Positions 9,217 through 23,980 of a DNA stretch of 64,000 bases are shown here, in pieces. A program made the position numbers and the translations under genes. Location of the stretch: the sequence record PQ821640. One strand, given 5' to 3'. This stretch comes from Escherichia phage SD2. Position 1 is the first letter of the stretch; every line of letters begins with the position of its first letter. Below the pieces are notes generated by a model. It ran no database searches and was not told the origin of the DNA. It saw only the letters and a program-made list of their open reading frames with translations.

Positions 9217-10344
9217 ATGAAATACACGATTTATGGTGATATTGTAAGTGTAAATAAAGATATGGGTGTGGAATCTAATTATCTTCCACCTGGATTCTAT
9301 ACTGTTAGTCGTGATCCCCTTGGCAATTATTTTTTAAGCCGTGGTAATCTAACAGGTGTACCGGATGTTCTGTATGGTGAAACAGAAAAACGAGCAAATC
9401 ACGTTATCCGTACATTCCATCGCCGGAGTGCACAAGGTAAAAATACAGGTTTGCTTCTGACAGGAACTAAGGGCAGTGGTAAAACTATGTTAGCCAAGCT
9501 CATTAGTCGTGACCTTGTAGAAGAAGGTATTCCAACTATTATGGTTACTCAAGCCTACAGTGATGCTAATTTCATTGAACTTATTAGCAAGATCACCGAC
9601 AAAGCAGTGATTATTTTTGACGAGTTTGATAAAGTGTATGAGAAGAAACAAGATCAAGAAGCACTTCTCACTTTGTTAGATGGTACTGGCAGTGGTAATA
9701 AACTGTTTATTCTAACTAAAAACAGTGGCTTTATCTCTGAATTCTTTCTAAATCGTCCTAGTCGTGTGTTTTATAATTTTAATTATGATAAAATCTCACT
9801 AGAAACTATGATTGACTATTTAGATAAAAACCTGGATAACAAAGCACACTTTGATAATTTCCAAAGACTTTGGGATGTAAGTTTAGAGTTGTCCTTTGAT
9901 GTGATCCAAGGTATAGTAGAAGAACTTAATTTCTACCCTGATTTATCCTTTAAAGAATGCATCTCTATGATGGGCGTTTCTTTGGGTGGTGGTAATAAAT
10001 GGGATATCAGCAGCGTTGTTATTAATGGAAAACTTCAGAAAGTTAGCTGGGTATCTAGTTGGCATAACTTCACACCTGCAATCTTTTTAGGTGGTTCGTG
10101 CACACTAGACGTGTACTTGTCATCTCCAAGTGATGCAGACTCTAAAGAAGCCCTTGCTAATAGCTCTTACGTGGTTTTTGATGATGAAGGCGATGCTCGA
10201 ATTCCATTGAATGCGACAAAAATGAAAGCAGATCTTATTACAGGCGGTAAAATCGTTGTGTTTAGTGATGATCCAGAAGATTCTTTCCGTATTGTTCTGG
10301 AACCAACTATCACCAATGGTGCAACTTTGGCAAGTGTGTTTTAA
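9217..10344 (+). CDS. AAA+ family ATPase
   Basis: Walker A GTKGSGKTMLAK; Walker B VIIFDEFD. Confidence 0.75.
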   Translation: MKYTIYGDIVSVNKDMGVESNYLPPGFYTVSRDPLGNYFLSRGNLTGVPDVLYGETEKRANHVIRTFHRRSAQGKNTGLLLTGTKGSGKTMLAKLISRDLVEEGIPTIMVTQAYSDANFIELISKITDKAVIIFDEFDKVYEKKQDQEALLTLLDGTGSGNKLFILTKNSGFISEFFLNRPSRVFYNFNYDKISLETMIDYLDKNLDNKAHFDNFQRLWDVSLELSFDVIQGIVEELNFYPDLSFKECISMMGVSLGGGNKWDISSVVINGKLQKVSWVSSWHNFTPAIFLGGSCTLDVYLSSPSDADSKEALANSSYVVFDDEGDARIPLNATKMKADLITGGKIVVFSDDPEDSFRIVLEPTITNGATLASVF

Positions 10345-10418: not shown

Positions 10419-11408
10419 ATGGCAGCACCAAAATCATGGGAACAATATAAAGAAGAGTGTATACCAATAGCAGAGAGTAAGCAAATCCAAATCTTAGGAT
10501 GGACGGGACAATGGAAAGGGGTCCACACAAAACTTGATTTGTTGTGCCATTGTGGTTATAAATGGGATACTACAAGTATTAACAGTTTTAAATGTGGTAG
10601 CGGTTGTCCACAATGTAGGAGGAAGAATATAAGGAAGTCACAAACAATGTCCGACGATCAACATATTGCAGATTTCTTTTCTACAGGGGAATTTAAGGAA
10701 GGCACTATCTTCACTAACACAGGAACACGGGGTAAAGGATGTAGGAATATTATCTGGATGGTTGAATGTCCTGTTTGCTCTCATGATGAATATGTTCAAG
10801 CAGGTGTTTGTGATGGTAAATTTTACTCTGAAGGAGATAACCTTAAACGAGGGTATATTCCGTGTCGTTGTGGGAACTATCGGTATACAGAAGACCAGAT
10901 CACCTATAGGGTAAAAAAGGAAGTAGAAGGGAAAGGGTATGTCTGGGTAGATTGGATTACCAAACCCTCTTCTATAGGTAAGTTTAAATATCTTTGTCTT
11001 GTGCATGGTGAGCAGATAGGGAGTGCTAATAATTTATTAAGCCTCGGTCGAGGTTGTCCTATGTGTGCTGGTCATAGTCAGCAGCAGTTATATATTAATA
11101 TTGTTAAGGATGATAATATTATAGTTGCTCTTAAGTTTGGTATAGCTAAAGATAGTGATAGGCGATTAAACATTCAAAATAGCCGTAATCTGTTTTTTAT
11201 GGAACGTATTTGTTTATATGATTTTAGCACAGTGAAACAGTGTAAGGCTGCTGAAAGAGCTATAAAGAAAAAATTAAAAACTGGTATTTTAACAGCAAGA
11301 GAGTTGAAAGACGGTCATACAGAAACAGTAAGTGTTTCTGATTTGGAAAATCTTCAAAAAATTATTACACAATATGGTGGCAAGTTAGTATACAATAAGG
11401 AGGTGTAA
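10419..11408 (+). CDS. Cys-rich zinc-ribbon repeat protein, C-terminal T5orf172/GIY-YIG-like region
   Basis: Repeated CxxC pairs (CHCGYKW, GCPQC, CPVCSHDEY, CRCG, GCPMCAGH); AGAGGAG SD. Confidence 0.65.
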   Translation: MAAPKSWEQYKEECIPIAESKQIQILGWTGQWKGVHTKLDLLCHCGYKWDTTSINSFKCGSGCPQCRRKNIRKSQTMSDDQHIADFFSTGEFKEGTIFTNTGTRGKGCRNIIWMVECPVCSHDEYVQAGVCDGKFYSEGDNLKRGYIPCRCGNYRYTEDQITYRVKKEVEGKGYVWVDWITKPSSIGKFKYLCLVHGEQIGSANNLLSLGRGCPMCAGHSQQQLYINIVKDDNIIVALKFGIAKDSDRRLNIQNSRNLFFMERICLYDFSTVKQCKAAERAIKKKLKTGILTARELKDGHTETVSVSDLENLQKIITQYGGKLVYNKEV

Positions 11409-11960
11409 ATGCGGATTACTGATAAGTATGTGTTCTTCTTTTCAGCAAAAGATGAATTTAGCAACTGGTATCTATCATCTTTTATTGAACCTTTAGCACC
11501 CAAGTATAATAATTCTATTACAAGTTCTGTTGAATTTACTTGTGTGGAACAATATATGATGTGGAGAAAAGCATGTTTGTTTTATGATTACAGTATTGCA
11601 TCTTCTATTTTAACCGGAGATCTAAGATATACAGGAGAAAAAGAACAAGCATATTATAAGCGACTAGGCAGATTAGTTAAAGATTATGATGAAGATACCT
11701 GGACTTCTTTACGGGAGAAGATTGTCAAACGTGGTTTGTATCTTAAATACACACAAAATGAAGATCTCAAAAATAAACTTATAACCTACGCAGATAAGGA
11801 GTTCGTAGAGGCAAGCCCTTATGATTCTATTTATGGTATCAAAATGGGGATGTGGGATCGTGACGTGGAAAATAAGGACTGTTGGAAAGGACAAAATCTT
11901 TTAGGAAAATGGCATACAGACCTTGCTGTTTATCTAAAAGCACAATCTGATATTTCCTGA
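11409..11960 (+). CDS. NADAR (YbiA-like, DUF1768) domain protein
   Basis: FFFSAKDEFSNWYLSSF, EQYMMWRKA and GQNLLGKWHTDLAVYL align with my recollection of E. coli YbiA; AAGGAGG SD. Confidence 0.7.
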   Translation: MRITDKYVFFFSAKDEFSNWYLSSFIEPLAPKYNNSITSSVEFTCVEQYMMWRKACLFYDYSIASSILTGDLRYTGEKEQAYYKRLGRLVKDYDEDTWTSLREKIVKRGLYLKYTQNEDLKNKLITYADKEFVEASPYDSIYGIKMGMWDRDVENKDCWKGQNLLGKWHTDLAVYLKAQSDIS

Positions 11961-12020
11961 TATTTTGAAAATTTTTATTTTTATAAAAAGGGGTGTGGGT
12001 TTCATGTACGGAAATTCACC

Positions 12021-12041
12021 CTCTGAATAATATATTCAGAG
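12021..12041. repeat. perfect inverted repeat CTCTGAATA-ATA-TATTCAGAG
   Basis: 9-bp stem, 3-nt loop, read directly; overlaps a second palindrome CAGAGTA...TACTCTG (12037-12062). Confidence 0.6.
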
Positions 12042-12174
12042 TAAATATTATTTTGTACTCTGTTAATAAATTATTTAATTTGTTTGTTGGATTATGATAT
12101 CTGGTTTTTAAAAGGCATACTATCTCTTAACTACTACTTATAACAGAACAGTAAAATCATTTTTATAAAAAGGA

Positions 12175-12382
12175 CAAAATTATTTAAAGTTTTTACAGAT
12201 TTTTGGATACAAATTTTGAAAATGAAAAGTTCAAGTTTGGTCAAAATTATTTAAAGTTTTTGTATGTATTTCTATCCAGATTTTGAAAATGAAAACTTCA
12301 ATTTTTTAAAAATTCCCCAGTTTATTTAAAGTTTTTTTACCTTTTTCCGTAGAAAAATCAAAAATGAAAAGTTCAATTTCGT
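12175..12382. repeat. three tandem direct repeats of about 68 bp
   Basis: Each unit begins TTATTTAAAGTTTTT and ends TTTTGAAAATGAAAAGTTCAA; AT-rich, non-coding. Confidence 0.7.
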
Positions 12383-12400
12383 GTTTTTATGGGTATGCGT

Positions 12401-12515
12401 ATGATAATCATTCTCATTTGTAAATGAGAATCATTATCATTTAATTATGTAAATGATAAGCATTCTCACTAAGAGAATGAGAATCATTAGCAAATGAGAA
12501 TTTTTCTCATTTGCA
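12401..12515. promoter_or_regulatory. cluster of five or more Fur-box-like dyad motifs
   Basis: ATGATAATCATTCTCATT, AATGAGAATCATTATCATT, ATGATAAGCATTCTCA, GAGAATGAGAATCATTAGC, AATGAGAATTTTTCTCATT; compare E. coli Fur box GATAATGATAATCATTATC. Confidence 0.45.
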
Positions 12516-12772
12516 GAATAACGCGCAGGGGCGGTGTTTGTCTCGCGCTCCCGTGTCCCCTCGCCATACAATAAGAATAGCATAACCAACAACAAAAGCA
12601 AGCGATTATTTTTATCTTTACATTTCTTTACAAATTTATTTTAGACGAGCTACCGGCGATCAACCTTCCAACCAGTGCCCCTGGTATGTTAGCCCCGCCT
12701 TTACGCCGTGGGGGTGGCGCTTCCTCTTCTGTATGTAAAACAGTATAAGCCCGATCCCTGGGCTTGTCAAGA

Positions 12773-13039
12773 TTATTTTTTGTTTTCTTGCCAGGATAGG
12801 ACACCTAACCAAAAATACATGTCGCCCCGTGCCCCTGGCGGGATCTTGCTTTCCCCGCCGCCACTGCAAGCCCATAAATAACCATTTACGAACGTATCAA
12901 AGTGATCTATCTCTTCCACCTTATGATCGCCCAGGTTGAGAACGGTTTCAACCTTTAAGCCCGTTGCGCTTGCTACCTGGTGCACCGTGCCGCCTTGCCA
13001 GCCCAATGAGTGCATGAGATGTAAAGGAGTATTTGTCAT
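12773..13039 (-). CDS. hypothetical protein inside a GC-rich, compositionally atypical segment
   Basis: 88-aa ORF on the opposite strand to the surrounding plus block, within 12520-13130 which is visibly GC-richer; overlapping track ORFs in other frames judged spurious. Confidence 0.4.
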   Translation of the reverse strand: MTNTPLHLMHSLGWQGGTVHQVASATGLKVETVLNLGDHKVEEIDHFDTFVNGYLWACSGGGESKIPPGARGDMYFWLGVLSWQENKK

Positions 13040-13149
13040 GGTATCGCCCTTTCTTTGATGTGCGCCCTGGTTGGCGCGGTAGAAAGATAATAGCCGTTTC
13101 CTTTATAGATAGCAAGCAAAAAAGAAATGAAAAAAGATTAAAAAAATGG

Positions 13150-13209
13150 TTGACGTTCCTCACCTGGTAGCGTAGTATTCATCTTGTCGAGGGGCGGCAA
13201 TAGTGCCGC
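13150..13209 (+). promoter_or_regulatory. promoter (TTGACG-17-TAGTAT) plus 5' hairpin GCGGC-AATAGT-GCCGC
   Basis: Read directly; upstream of ORF 13234. Confidence 0.6.
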
Positions 13210-13233
13210 TCATAACAGAAGAGAGAAATAATC

Positions 13234-13506
13234 ATGGCATCATATAGCGCATCAATGATCGTAGCTGGCATCACTGGTAAACCTATGCGCGGTGGCGGAT
13301 CTTTCGCTAACATCAATATTGATGGACGTTTATCCCTGGACGCAGCGATCACAGTGGCACGGGAAACGTTTAAAAAAGAATGTAATTTCAATAAACAAGA
13401 TTATCTCGGTTTCGCTATTGAAAAAACCGCGCGATTTGTGGATTATAAAAGCCCGAAAATGATCGACACTACACTAAAAGCGCAAGATGTAGCGTTTTTG
13501 CTTTAA
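13234..13506 (+). CDS. hypothetical early protein
   Basis: 90 aa; preceded by promoter-hairpin cassette. Confidence 0.7.
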   Translation: MASYSASMIVAGITGKPMRGGGSFANINIDGRLSLDAAITVARETFKKECNFNKQDYLGFAIEKTARFVDYKSPKMIDTTLKAQDVAFLL

Positions 13507-13509
13507 GTC

Positions 13510-13569
13510 TTGACACTGAAAAATAATTTGGTAATATATACTCCATAAGGCGGGAAATGGTTTCCCGCC
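13510..13569 (+). promoter_or_regulatory. promoter (TTGACA-16-TAATAT) plus hairpin GGCGGGAAA-TGG-TTTCCCGCC
   Basis: Perfect 9-bp stem at 13549-13569, read directly. Confidence 0.65.
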
Positions 13570-13591
13570 AAAACAAAGAAAGGGTAACACA

Positions 13592-15001: not shown

Positions 15002-15057
15002 TTGACATATGCAAACAAGCCCCGTAATATGTACCACATAGAGCGGGGCAACGCCCC
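15002..15057 (+). promoter_or_regulatory. promoter (TTGACA-17-TAATAT) plus hairpin GGGGC-AAC-GCCCC, no ORF directly downstream
   Basis: Followed by a second promoter rather than an RBS. Confidence 0.55.
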
Positions 15058-15079
15058 ATAAGGTGAAATAAAAAATCAC

Positions 15080-18971: not shown

Positions 18972-19033
18972 TTGACAGCACGCCTGATAAGGAGTATATT
19001 GTATCTCATAGAGCGGGGAAATGGTTTCCCCGC
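18972..19033 (+). promoter_or_regulatory. promoter (TTGACA-17-TATATT) plus hairpin GCGGGGAAA-TGG-TTTCCCCGC
   Basis: Read directly. Confidence 0.65.
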
Positions 19034-19053
19034 CTTAACAGAAGAGATAAGAT

Positions 19054-20115: not shown

Positions 20116-20174
20116 TTGACACCGATCCCCAATATGGTATTATTTACCACGTAGGCGGGAAATGGTTTCCCGCC
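20116..20174 (+). promoter_or_regulatory. promoter (TTGACA-16-TATTAT) plus hairpin GGCGGGAAA-TGG-TTTCCCGCC
   Basis: Read directly. Confidence 0.65.
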
Positions 20175-20198
20175 AGGTAATCAAAAAAGGTAAACATT

Positions 20199-21357: not shown

Positions 21358-21741
21358 ATGAGCAATATCATCAACCTGGCGGCTACTGTAAACGGTAAAG
21401 ATTTTAACGGCGCTGTAGATCGTGATCCTATGTGGTACTTGTCAGTATTTAAAGGCGATCTGGTTGAAGTTAGAACAACCGAAGGGTATAGCGATGATTA
21501 TAAATGCGAGATCCATTTACATAACTGGTACACGGGGAAAACTTATGCGCTAAACCATGCGTTTATCGGGAAAATTGAATATCGCGAGATGATCGACGAA
21601 GAAACGGGGCAAGATTTTAGCGATTATGTTTATATTCGTTCAGAAACATTAGCCGAACGTTTGATCGAGAAAATGAAAGCAAAAAATAAAATTAATTTAG
21701 CTCATTGGCTTGATATAACAAACGATCCGGCTTATAAGTAA
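21358..21741 (+). CDS. hypothetical protein
   Basis: 127 aa; GAGGAA SD. Confidence 0.7.
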   Translation: MSNIINLAATVNGKDFNGAVDRDPMWYLSVFKGDLVEVRTTEGYSDDYKCEIHLHNWYTGKTYALNHAFIGKIEYREMIDEETGQDFSDYVYIRSETLAERLIEKMKAKNKINLAHWLDITNDPAYK

Positions 21742-21751
21742 ATAACATTTC

Positions 21752-21785
21752 ACACCAGGGCGCACAAAGCGCCCTTTCTTTTTTA
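21752..21785 (+). terminator. rho-independent terminator
   Basis: AGGGCGC-ACAAA-GCGCCCT then TTCTTTTTT. Confidence 0.75.
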
Positions 21786-21988
21786 CCTAAATAAAGATGA
21801 TAGCTTTTACCTATCAAAAACGTTCACCGAAAAAAGTGAATAGATCGCGGTATCGAGCTAATCAAGGAGCAGATGAACAACCATACCATGAAGATCATAA
21901 GGCGCTTACAACGTGTTTTAGACCGCTTATTTTTAATTTCTTCATGTAACTATCTGGCAAAAACAGCCTTTTTCTTGTCTTTCCTCTT

Positions 21989-22065
21989 AAATGATAATCA
22001 TTCTTATTTATAGCTGATTATTTATGCAATAAACTGAATAATGTAATAATGATAATCATTCTTAA
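21989..22065. promoter_or_regulatory. two direct copies of AATGATAATCATTCTTA (Fur-box-like)
   Basis: At about 21989 and 22047 inside an AT-rich non-coding region. Confidence 0.45.
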
Positions 22066-22890
22066 CTTAAGACCATCTAACCTATAAAATAATAAGTTAT
22101 CTAACTAAATTAAAACTAATTATCTCACCTTTATTTATAACTTACTGTTACTATCTCATTGATAACCTTATATTAAACAACAATAACTAATATAAATTAT
22201 TACTAAGCTAAATATAATCTATCTAACCTTTAAAACTATAATTATAATCTATCGAATTGTTGCACAAAGTAACTATTAAATTGTTAGTAACATTACTAAA
22301 TAATTAATATCCTATCTATTTATGATCTAATCTTTACCTTCCTATTTATTACCTAAATAATCATTTCATACCGTAATCATTTCATACAATAATTATAACA
22401 AGAAATATAATTAACAAGCGTATCATTAGCAGCCTATGCCGGACACATAGGCGGCTAATAATAACGCAACTACACACCCCACATAATAACCATCACCGAT
22501 AGTTATTATTTGTGCTTATGTAGCTTGCAACAACTGCAAGCGCAACAATATACATGGTATATTGTATTCCCTTACATTGTTGCGGTGCGTTATTATTAGC
22601 TAATGTTTGGAACATTGGCTATAATATAAGCTATCCAATAATAAACATAGTGAATAATAACCCTGATGATCATAATGCGCCACCTTCCAGGGGGCGCTAT
22701 GTGAACACAAAGAAATCTTTCTTGTCAAGAAAAATATTACCATTATTGCGCAAAATTATTTACATCTGAATAGATGGTTTTTCATACTATTGCCCCATAT
22801 AGCCTATCATTTGTTGAGCCTACTTTCTTAAAAGCGCAATAAATTAGAATTATCTTGATTTTTAGGGCGTTTTATAGTATAGAAAATATG

Positions 22891-22915
22891 CAAATGATAA
22901 TCATTATCAGTTATC
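22891..22915. promoter_or_regulatory. Fur-box-like site AATGATAATCATTATC
   Basis: 16 consecutive matches to the E. coli Fur consensus as I recall it. Confidence 0.5.
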
Positions 22916-23070
22916 TTCCACGGGTGGCACTATTTCACGCAGGATCATTTCATTTGGCAAGGTGTATATAGATGTTTAGACTTGCCAAGCCATTGATTTG
23001 CTTAGAATTTATCTGTTTTGTTGTGAGTAATGCCTTTCTTGCTCAGAAAATAATCAAAAGTCTTATAAGT

Positions 23071-23114
23071 CATTGAATGATAATGCAAATGATAATAATT
23101 CTCATTGATATTTG
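23071..23114. promoter_or_regulatory. degenerate tandem Fur-box-like motifs
   Basis: GAATGATAATGCAAATGATAATAATTCTCATTGATA. Confidence 0.4.
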
Positions 23115-23512
23115 AGGGGGACGGTCAGCAGAAATCGGGGGGCGCTGAAAATCGCGTTAAGCACCTCTCGCAAGCGAGCAGTATTTTGCGGCAAGTTATT
23201 GATATTATTGACTTTACGCTTATGAAAAGGGGGTGTGTCGAAATAAATCGGGTATACCGGAAAATTTTTGTGGCATAGATATTTATTTGTCTATATTATG
23301 TACAAAGGGGTGTGTTAAAAATATTAGGTATATATAGAATAATTGATAGGGAAATCCTATACTAAATCCTTCATTATTGCAGCGGGTGAAAGACAGAATC
23401 GAAGATGCAAATAATGCTTGCATTGGATAGAAATGTCTGTATAGTGGTTTGCATACCGCGCACGACGCGTTTCCATTTTCAATAAAATGTTAGCATTATG
23501 GGGAGGTAGAAA

Positions 23513-23980
23513 ATGAGCGAAAAACCAGTGAGAGCTTCCACAATATTGGAAGCATACCTGCAATGCGTTGTAGATTACGTCAAGAGAAACTCCAGCCTAC
23601 TGGACGTCTACCGTGCAGATGATGGCGATGTTGGTATTGTCTATGTGAAACACACTTTATCCGCGCGTAATGAGGTTTTCCGTGCAAGTATGTTAGGGTG
23701 TGATCGTGTTCGTGTGAACTATTTAGACCCGAACTATCGCCATGCTCTTGAAGATATTGAAGATTATCTTCCTCGCTGCCCGACAGGTAATGCAAAAGTG
23801 GCAGAAGAAGCCCCACAAGGTGTTGATTATCGTGTAGCCTTGTGGAAAAAGGCACGTCAACTACAAGTGCTGAATGAAATGAAAGAAGAGATTGAAAAAG
23901 AACTGAAAGAAGATTTTGGTATGCTTCCAAAAGACGCTTTGAAATGGTATGATGAACTAGGAGGAGAAAGTTATGAATAA
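23513..23980 (+). CDS. hypothetical protein
   Basis: 155 aa; GGGGAGG SD. Confidence 0.7.
   Translation: MSEKPVRASTILEAYLQCVVDYVKRNSSLLDVYRADDGDVGIVYVKHTLSARNEVFRASMLGCDRVRVNYLDPNYRHALEDIEDYLPRCPTGNAKVAEEAPQGVDYRVALWKKARQLQVLNEMKEEIEKELKEDFGMLPKDALKWYDELGGESYE

Follow-up and report, generated by a model that had tools for sequence, protein, structure and literature searches.

What is the role of three long direct repeats that stand in a gene-free gap of a phage genome, ahead of a long series of small genes? The question is raised by a 64,000-nucleotide stretch of Escherichia phage SD2 (PQ821640), referred to here as the window, which belongs to Justusliebigvirus (phi92-like, subfamily Stephanstirmvirinae). 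Between positions 11000 and 14000 the window shares 96–98% identity with more than 50 Escherichia phages of this genus, and Phapecoctavirus and Klebsiella phages are more distant. Four records labelled 'Campylobacter phage' (MG065639, MG065645, MG065656 and MG065689) also show about 96% identity to these E. coli phages in the region, and their host labels look doubtful. The repeats sit in a gene-free gap of 1.27 kb (11961-13233), bordered on the left by a gene of the NADAR family (11409-11960; Pfam E = 6e-36) and on the right by the small genes, all of which lie on the plus strand. A first-pass annotation, made from the letters of the sequence, had described three tandem 68-bp direct repeats upstream of an early block and had proposed an array of protein-binding sites, either iterons or an enhancer-like element, rather than coding sequence. 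A description of these repeats was not found in the literature; the phage records examined carry no annotation of an origin or regulatory element at the locus, and the literature searched yielded none for these phages.

The array consists of three units whose starts are spaced by 67 and 75 bp (Table 1). Each unit has a conserved core of 55 nt, composed of a 15-nt box A (TTATTTAAAGTTTTT, exact in all three), a variable centre of 24 nt and a 16-nt box B (AAAATGAAAAGTTCAA), and box B follows box A at a fixed offset of 39 nt in three of three units. The first-pass annotation had therefore seen three repeats in the right place with a period that needs correction (67 and 75, not 68), and its strict head-to-tail arrangement does not hold, because linkers of 12 and 20 nt separate the cores. 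The right-hand end that it regarded as conserved is so only over AAAATGAAAAGTTCAA; the TTTTG placed before it is missing from unit 3. The unequal spacing also explains why Tandem Repeats Finder reported just 2.0 copies (period 67, score 185); a direct-repeat search recovered three, with 72–73% identity over 79 nt. No other exact copy of box A exists in the 64-kb window, and a search for box B allowing two mismatches or fewer returned three sites in the window against 0.44 expected. Both boxes are likewise confined to the three units in the relative BME3, for which the complete genome (147,371 bp) is available. Chance is excluded as the source of the repeats by these observations, and the restriction of the boxes to one locus, in the window as in the 147-kb genome of BME3, points to a single cis-acting site and not to a class of promoters. 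The array is also very rich in A+T (Table 1), and its counterpart in BME3 is the AT-richest 200 bp of that genome, about 4.4 standard deviations over the mean (62.5%, sd 4.1).

Table 1. Positions of the repeat array and of the elements that surround it in the window
Feature	Position	Strand	Description
Inverted repeats	11990-12041		Two, directly 3' of the NADAR-family gene; flanked by ATTTTTATAAAAAGG
AT-rich maximum	12140-12340		80.5% A+T; ranks second among the 200-bp stretches of the window
Repeat unit 1	12180-12234		Box A 12180-12194; centre 12195-12218 (small dyad TTTG-GATA-CAAA); box B 12219-12234
Repeat unit 2	12247-12301		Box A 12247-12261; variable centre; box B 12286-12301 (one mismatch, G to C)
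Repeat unit 3	12322-12376		Box A 12322-12336; centre dyad TTTTTC-CGTA-GAAAAA; box B 12361-12376
Palindromes	12402-12509		Five of 15 bp, TGAGAAT-C-ATTCTCA type; starts 12402, 12425, 12454, 12478, 12495; directly after the array
GC-rich element	12516-12740	-	Conserved, non-coding, about 225 nt; in 245 phage records from two subfamilies
Sigma-70 promoter	12742-12770	-	TTGACA-17-TATACT (11/12); spacer is a GC hairpin
88-aa ORF	12773-13039	-	N-terminus helix-turn-helix-like; PHROG 19316, unknown function; divergent from the early genes
First early promoter	13150-13178	+	TTGACG-17-TAGTAT; serves the gene starting at 13234

Comparison with relatives indicated which parts of the array are under constraint. 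Among seven Justusliebigvirus genomes, a sample that is small and made of phages related to one another but gives a clear direction, variable positions numbered 0 of 93 in the boxes, 5 of 115 in the centres and linkers and about 10 of 89 in the flanks. This bears out the earlier idea of a constrained bipartite site with conserved ends and a variable centre. The variation in copy number for which the first-pass annotation suggested looking in homologous phages does not occur within the genus, where all phages examined have three copies; outside it, Klebsiella phage 05F01 has two units, both shortened, and Phapecoctavirus has two good units and a degenerate one, 138 bp in all. Klebsiella phage phi1_175008 is only about 69% identical over the region, and yet it keeps three units at 67 and 75 bp with the 39-nt box offset. 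In the sister subfamily Vequintavirinae, the homologous place is taken by three units of unrelated sequence (GTTCTCGATCG..TTTTCAAAATCGAAAACGTATTTTTTC..GAAAAAATTTTT), each with one to three GATC sites. Across the five genera compared, the spacings are 75 and 67 bp in PVP-SE1 and TH18, 76 and 67 bp in GAP31, 74 and 67 bp in BIS47, and 78 and 63 bp in CR9 and DU_PP_I, and the total span of the array is 141–143 bp in every case, against 142 bp in the window. A third repeat type is present in an rV5-like phage as five shorter copies that span 148 bp. Because the units are alike within a genome and different between lineages while their number and span are kept, the pattern is that of co-evolution with a cognate, lineage-specific protein. 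Judged from these alignments, it is not the turnover that sites for a conserved host factor are expected to undergo, and the putative binder is probably encoded by the phage and specific to the lineage. A scan of IMG/VR for the repeat pattern retrieved only three loci, each from a close relative.

The array is one part of a larger arrangement, since three repeats (about 142 bp), Fur-box-like palindromes and a GC-rich element of about 225 nt follow one another in both Stephanstirmvirinae and Vequintavirinae. The five palindromes of the window differ by one to three mismatches each from the Fur 7-1-7 consensus; between one and five stand after the array in the lineages compared, with zero to three mismatches. 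Such palindromes (TGATAATnATTATCA) are confined to two large gene-free regions of the window, at 12402-12509 in the first and at 21992-22064, 22895-22909 and 23090-23104 in the second, the match being perfect at 22895 and one mismatch away at 12402, 12425 and 23090, and two of them fall within the terminal repeat described below. The same palindromes are present in Vequintavirinae and T5-like phages, and the literature searched made no mention of Fur sites in these lytic phages. The GC-rich element reaches 82–87% identity even between subfamilies. The lengths of its indels are not multiples of three, its consensus fold has very little covariation (covariation term -0.13 kcal/mol), and neither the element nor the gene-free region as a whole has an Rfam match above noise. 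At the far edge of the element, a sigma-70 promoter aims at the array across both subfamilies; it matches the consensus at 9–12 of 12 positions in all 12 lineages compared, whereas candidates for a rightward promoter are weak and inconsistent between lineages (7–9/12, at shifting positions). Transcription of the element probably proceeds leftward, in the direction of the palindromes and the array, and the element is a candidate for an undescribed phage RNA that would serve as primer or regulator.

On the other side, the inverted repeats that follow the NADAR-family gene are probably a terminator region, inferred to form the left border of the array. The 15-mer ATTTTTATAAAAAGG is present twice (11977-11991 and 12159-12173) and brackets a hairpin-rich stretch between this gene and the array. 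The free-standing endonuclease genes beside the module differ by lineage, with a CapR plus T5orf172 protein in the window (10419-11408) and an HNH endonuclease in PVP-SE1, which suggests that homing endonucleases use the gene-free region as a landing site. To the right of the gap, each small gene has a near-consensus sigma-70 promoter (TTGACA-17-TATAAT type) followed by a conserved 5'-UTR hairpin, and the label 'early block' is therefore a fair one. The hairpin (GGCGGGAAATGGTTTCCCGCC and variants) is common to the early transcripts and lies between the consensus promoter and the ribosome-binding site, for example at 13190-13215, 13545-13570, 15040-15065, 19010-19035 and 20150-20175. The array is upstream of this block, as had been noted, but about 850 bp separate the two, and this interval is occupied by the palindromes, the conserved non-coding element and a minus-strand gene.

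Several explanations that would deprive the array of a role as a set of protein-binding sites, or would give that role to transcription initiation or packaging, can be weighed against these observations. Duplications are tolerated in AT-rich spacers, and the array might be a functionless tandem duplication in a gene-free spacer of this kind, or belong to a small gene or a structured RNA. Only one ORF lies over it, a 36-aa frame with a TTG start that overlaps unit 1 and is annotated in EmilieFrey; it is broken in phi92 by a 1-nt insertion in the centre of unit 1, and a small gene was consequently rejected, in agreement with the non-coding nature claimed at first. A structured RNA was rejected as well, with a folding z-score of +0.31 on both strands and no Rfam match. 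Lack of function is difficult to reconcile with three units of equal total span kept in two subfamilies despite complete sequence turnover, and with boxes that are invariant within the genus; this group of explanations is very improbable. Hardly more credible, and slightly less so if anything, is the proposal that the units are three tandem promoters driving the early block and read by sigma-70, sigma-28 or a phage-modified polymerase. Triple tandem early promoters exist in T7 (A1–A3) and N4, and box A contains TAAAGTTT, the exact -35 consensus of sigma-28. The corresponding -10 element (GCCGATAA) is nevertheless absent and the positions where it should stand are unconserved in relatives. For sigma-70, inspection by eye and a scan of the array gave nothing on the plus strand with a -35/-10 pair at 16–18 nt within the units and one weak 9/12 match on the minus strand in unit 2; inspection by eye gave no sigma-54 promoter either. 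Moreover, the motif precedes no other gene in the 147 kb of BME3, and the early promoters that the phage does have are of the ordinary sigma-70 consensus.

Three protein-binding repeats are also typical of terminase sites, and a few database records begin at or near the array, which would be expected if the small terminase subunit recognised it as a site of pac or cos type similar to the R sites of lambda cosB. The physical ends of the genome are elsewhere. The reference record of phi92 has direct terminal repeats of 343 bp annotated at both ends, which correspond to 22817-23159 of the window; seven accessions, from six phages, begin at the identical base (22817); and the record of BME3, whose ends were called with PhageTerm (PMC12210895), begins at 23158. 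The annotation of phi92, the shared record starts and the start of BME3 together place the genome ends in the gene-free region 21741-23513, 10.4 kb from the array. The terminal repeat of KPP-1 (Vequintavirinae) similarly falls in a different gene-free region, and most record starts are arbitrary. The resemblance to lambda cosB, with its three R sites for gpNu1 and an IHF site, lies in three spaced sites that would organise one nucleoprotein complex, and the difference in the 10.4 kb between the array and the mapped ends; a packaging site is thus as implausible as tandem promoters. The possibility that a T5-like terminal repeat of some 11 kb extends from the array to position 23158, suggested by three records that start at the array, was discarded in view of the 343-bp repeats of phi92, the six phages that start at 22817, the arbitrary nature of the other starts and an 8-nt gap at the junction of EC152. 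The linear record of this Enterobacter phage (PP681140.1) opens inside unit 1 and lacks 8 nt at its own end junction in comparison with GAP31; its start probably reflects a break that the repeats caused in the assembly and not a physical end. Besides the genome ends, the region 21741-23513 contains six short repeats of TATCTAAC/TATCTCA type (22080-22330) and a tandem repeat of 16 nt (22356-22393), and it includes the DNA that ranks second in the genome for AT-richness.

On the evidence of sequence comparison, the array is thus very likely a functional, non-coding element made of three bipartite protein-binding sites inside a larger conserved cis-module. The protein-binding part of the first proposal gains support from the constraint on the boxes and from the number and spacing kept in two subfamilies, although no binding protein was identified. 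The 88-aa ORF was rejected as the repeat binder because it accompanies each of the three repeat types and several lineages lack it, so that it does not co-vary with the repeats. The AAA+ ATPase encoded at 9217-10344 was rejected as an initiator since, among relatives with a solved structure, it comes closest to Cdc48/p97. The gene immediately upstream of the array in Vequintavirinae encodes a protein of about 274 aa whose function is unknown; the protein belongs to PHROG 12959 beside the common repeat type and to the divergent PHROG 12463 beside the rV5 type, and it has no homologue in the window or in BME3. This protein may be the cognate binder in that subfamily, which is a lead and not a result.

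The function that ranks first for these sites, and that is put forward tentatively, is the binding of a lineage-specific protein at a transcription-activated replication origin, of which the array would be the iteron and DNA-unwinding part. Host RNA polymerase would start at the conserved sigma-70 promoter (12770-12742) and transcribe leftward, first across the GC-rich element and then across the palindromes, to enter the array, which would be the most easily melted DNA of the genome. The duplex would then be opened by the combined effect of the protein bound at the three sites, the transcript, acting as R-loop or primer, and the negative supercoils left in the wake of the polymerase, and the T7-type primase-helicase and PolA-type polymerase of the phage would load. 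The uniqueness of both boxes, their invariance among variable centres, linkers and flanks, the geometry kept while the sequence is replaced, the AT-richness of the counterpart in BME3 and the conserved promoter directed at the array are all consistent with such an origin. The replisome genes are T7-like by annotation (primase/helicase, polymerase and SSB), and the primary origin of T7 consists of promoters followed by an AT-rich stretch. Among features regarded as origin-like hallmarks, GATC sites are present in the Vequintavirinae-type units and DnaA boxes flank the T5 counterpart of the module (10.1101/866236). In the genome paper of rV5, ICP1 is listed with the closest homologues of the DNA polymerase of rV5, and ICP1 replicates from discrete origins, the second of which, late and of the rolling-circle type, lies beside the pac site in a gene-free space of 1.3 kb (PMC7145576).

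Other observations do not fit an origin of known type. As in the iteron origins of lambda (ori), P1 (oriR) and SPP1 (oriL), several direct repeats stand in non-coding DNA once per genome, tied to the AT-richest DNA, with copies that are identical inside one genome and diverge between lineages; iterons are also used by the RepA_N protein of the PLE satellite (PMC7145576). The units of the array, however, are bipartite and 55 bp long at a spacing of 67 and 75 bp, and greatly exceed classical iterons of 17–22 bp at about 22-bp spacing; repeats at one non-coding locus and an AT-rich unwinding element are present, and short helically phased iterons are not. Consensus sites for DnaA and IHF were not found in the gap (11961-13233), with neither TTWTNCACA nor a one-mismatch TTATCCACA, and a cognate initiator gene was not found. 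The neighbouring AAA+ ATPase, with its resemblance to Cdc48/p97, is unlike DnaA, Orc or DnaC, and the lack of co-variation of the helix-turn-helix-like ORF with the repeat type also weighs against it as the initiator. GC skew tracks only transcription and gives no origin signal. The primary origin of T7 (phi1.1A/B and the AT-rich region), together with oriF/oriG of T4 and the priming by RNA II in ColE1, provides the closer parallel for a strong promoter that feeds into an AT-rich stretch in the company of a T7-like primase-helicase and polymerase, and transcription of the GC-rich segment could give a more stable RNA-DNA hybrid. A T7-type origin, though, needs no iterons; the AT-rich part here is made of precise repeats that are dispensable in T7, and the promoter is read by host sigma-70 and lies about 360–590 bp from the array. 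Finally, the look-alike module of T5 occupies the inner margin of the long terminal repeat, a position not believed to house origins (10.1101/866236).

Two other functions would make use of the same protein sites. The array could be the lineage-specific part of a boundary module of the type of T5 'Repeat Region 3', with its TATCTCA motifs, direct repeats and palindromes, which would mark the inner limit of a terminal early-gene segment of about 10 kb. Through proteins or DNA structures that assemble there, it would cause a pause in DNA entry or insulate or shut off early transcription. This is rather unlikely but draws on an extended likeness: T5-like phages (Tequintavirus records) match the palindromes by blastn, and in them a large untranslated region shows TATCTCAAAT motifs, then six to nine DRD direct repeats, then the same palindromes (AATGAGAATCATTCTCATT type), in the order found here, with DnaA boxes after the palindromes at the inner edge of the long terminal repeat. 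Davison (bioRxiv 10.1101/866236) has proposed that the T5 region acts as an injection stop signal. Between the array of phi92 and the right physical end lie about 11.6 kb, 7.8% of the genome, and the first-step-transfer segment of T5 amounts to 7.9%; small genes with strong sigma-70 promoters occupy the interval between module and end. Direct repeats and palindromes in an untranslated region are thus shared, while the paired DnaA boxes and the edge of a terminal repeat of about 10 kb are missing, the gap (11961-13233) being devoid of DnaA boxes and the terminal repeat measuring 343 bp; the phi92-like phages have instead three long bipartite units and a conserved GC-rich element. The genes between module and end run away from the module here and toward it in the T5-like records, and those up to the right end encode at most 184 aa, against about 550 aa for A1 of T5, a comparison by size only. 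The role of the T5 region is itself a hypothesis, and the shared palindromes may be mere sites for a common host protein. A broader form of the idea, in which the array is the phage-specific part of a composite cis-module (TATCTCA motifs, direct repeats and Fur-box-like palindromes) common to three groups of large virulent enterobacterial phages, the T5-like, rV5-like and phi92-like, and the repeats dock the control protein of each phage, is quite unlikely as judged from the sequences compared.

Alternatively, the array could be an architectural or activator-binding region for transcription that starts in or beside the palindromic operators, and a bound protein or intrinsic curvature would stimulate or gate a promoter, either a rightward operator-controlled one for the conserved element or those of the early block beyond. 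UP elements and curved DNA are known examples of AT-rich upstream regions able to activate promoters. The array is directly upstream of the palindromes, a promoter-like site in Vequintavirinae (TTGAAT-18-CAGAAT) has the palindrome as its spacer, and AA/TT dinucleotides show an 11-bp periodicity that just 0.6% of random windows reach, although this may be a by-product of the repeats. The promoter to be regulated is less apparent. Rightward candidates are weak and inconsistent beside the conserved leftward promoter, no sigma-70 site is found in or just after the array save a 9/12 site inside the palindromes, and the genuine early promoters, at a distance of more than 770 bp, are already near consensus. 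Regulation of this kind is accordingly an unlikely explanation, a little below a T5-type boundary in rank, and the putative replication origin stays the reading placed first, with some probability left for functions other than those named here.

In conclusion, a single, unique and strongly conserved cis-module has been defined in phages that are widely isolated and are candidates for therapy, the phi92-like and rV5-like groups, and the three repeats are its fast-evolving, lineage-specific part. The preservation of number and spacing under full replacement of the sequence offers a clean natural example of co-evolution between sites and protein. If the module is an origin, it would provide a handle for phage engineering, for the building of replicons and for understanding how the host is taken over. 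If it corresponds to the T5 repeat region, what stops the entry of T5 DNA would become testable by comparison of three phage groups, and, should it act as proposed for T5, DNA entry in two stages would be widespread outside T5 as well; the alternative would be that a host factor gates the early programme, possibly with iron acting through Fur. The value of the finding lies mainly in the conserved architecture that it reveals across phage subfamilies.
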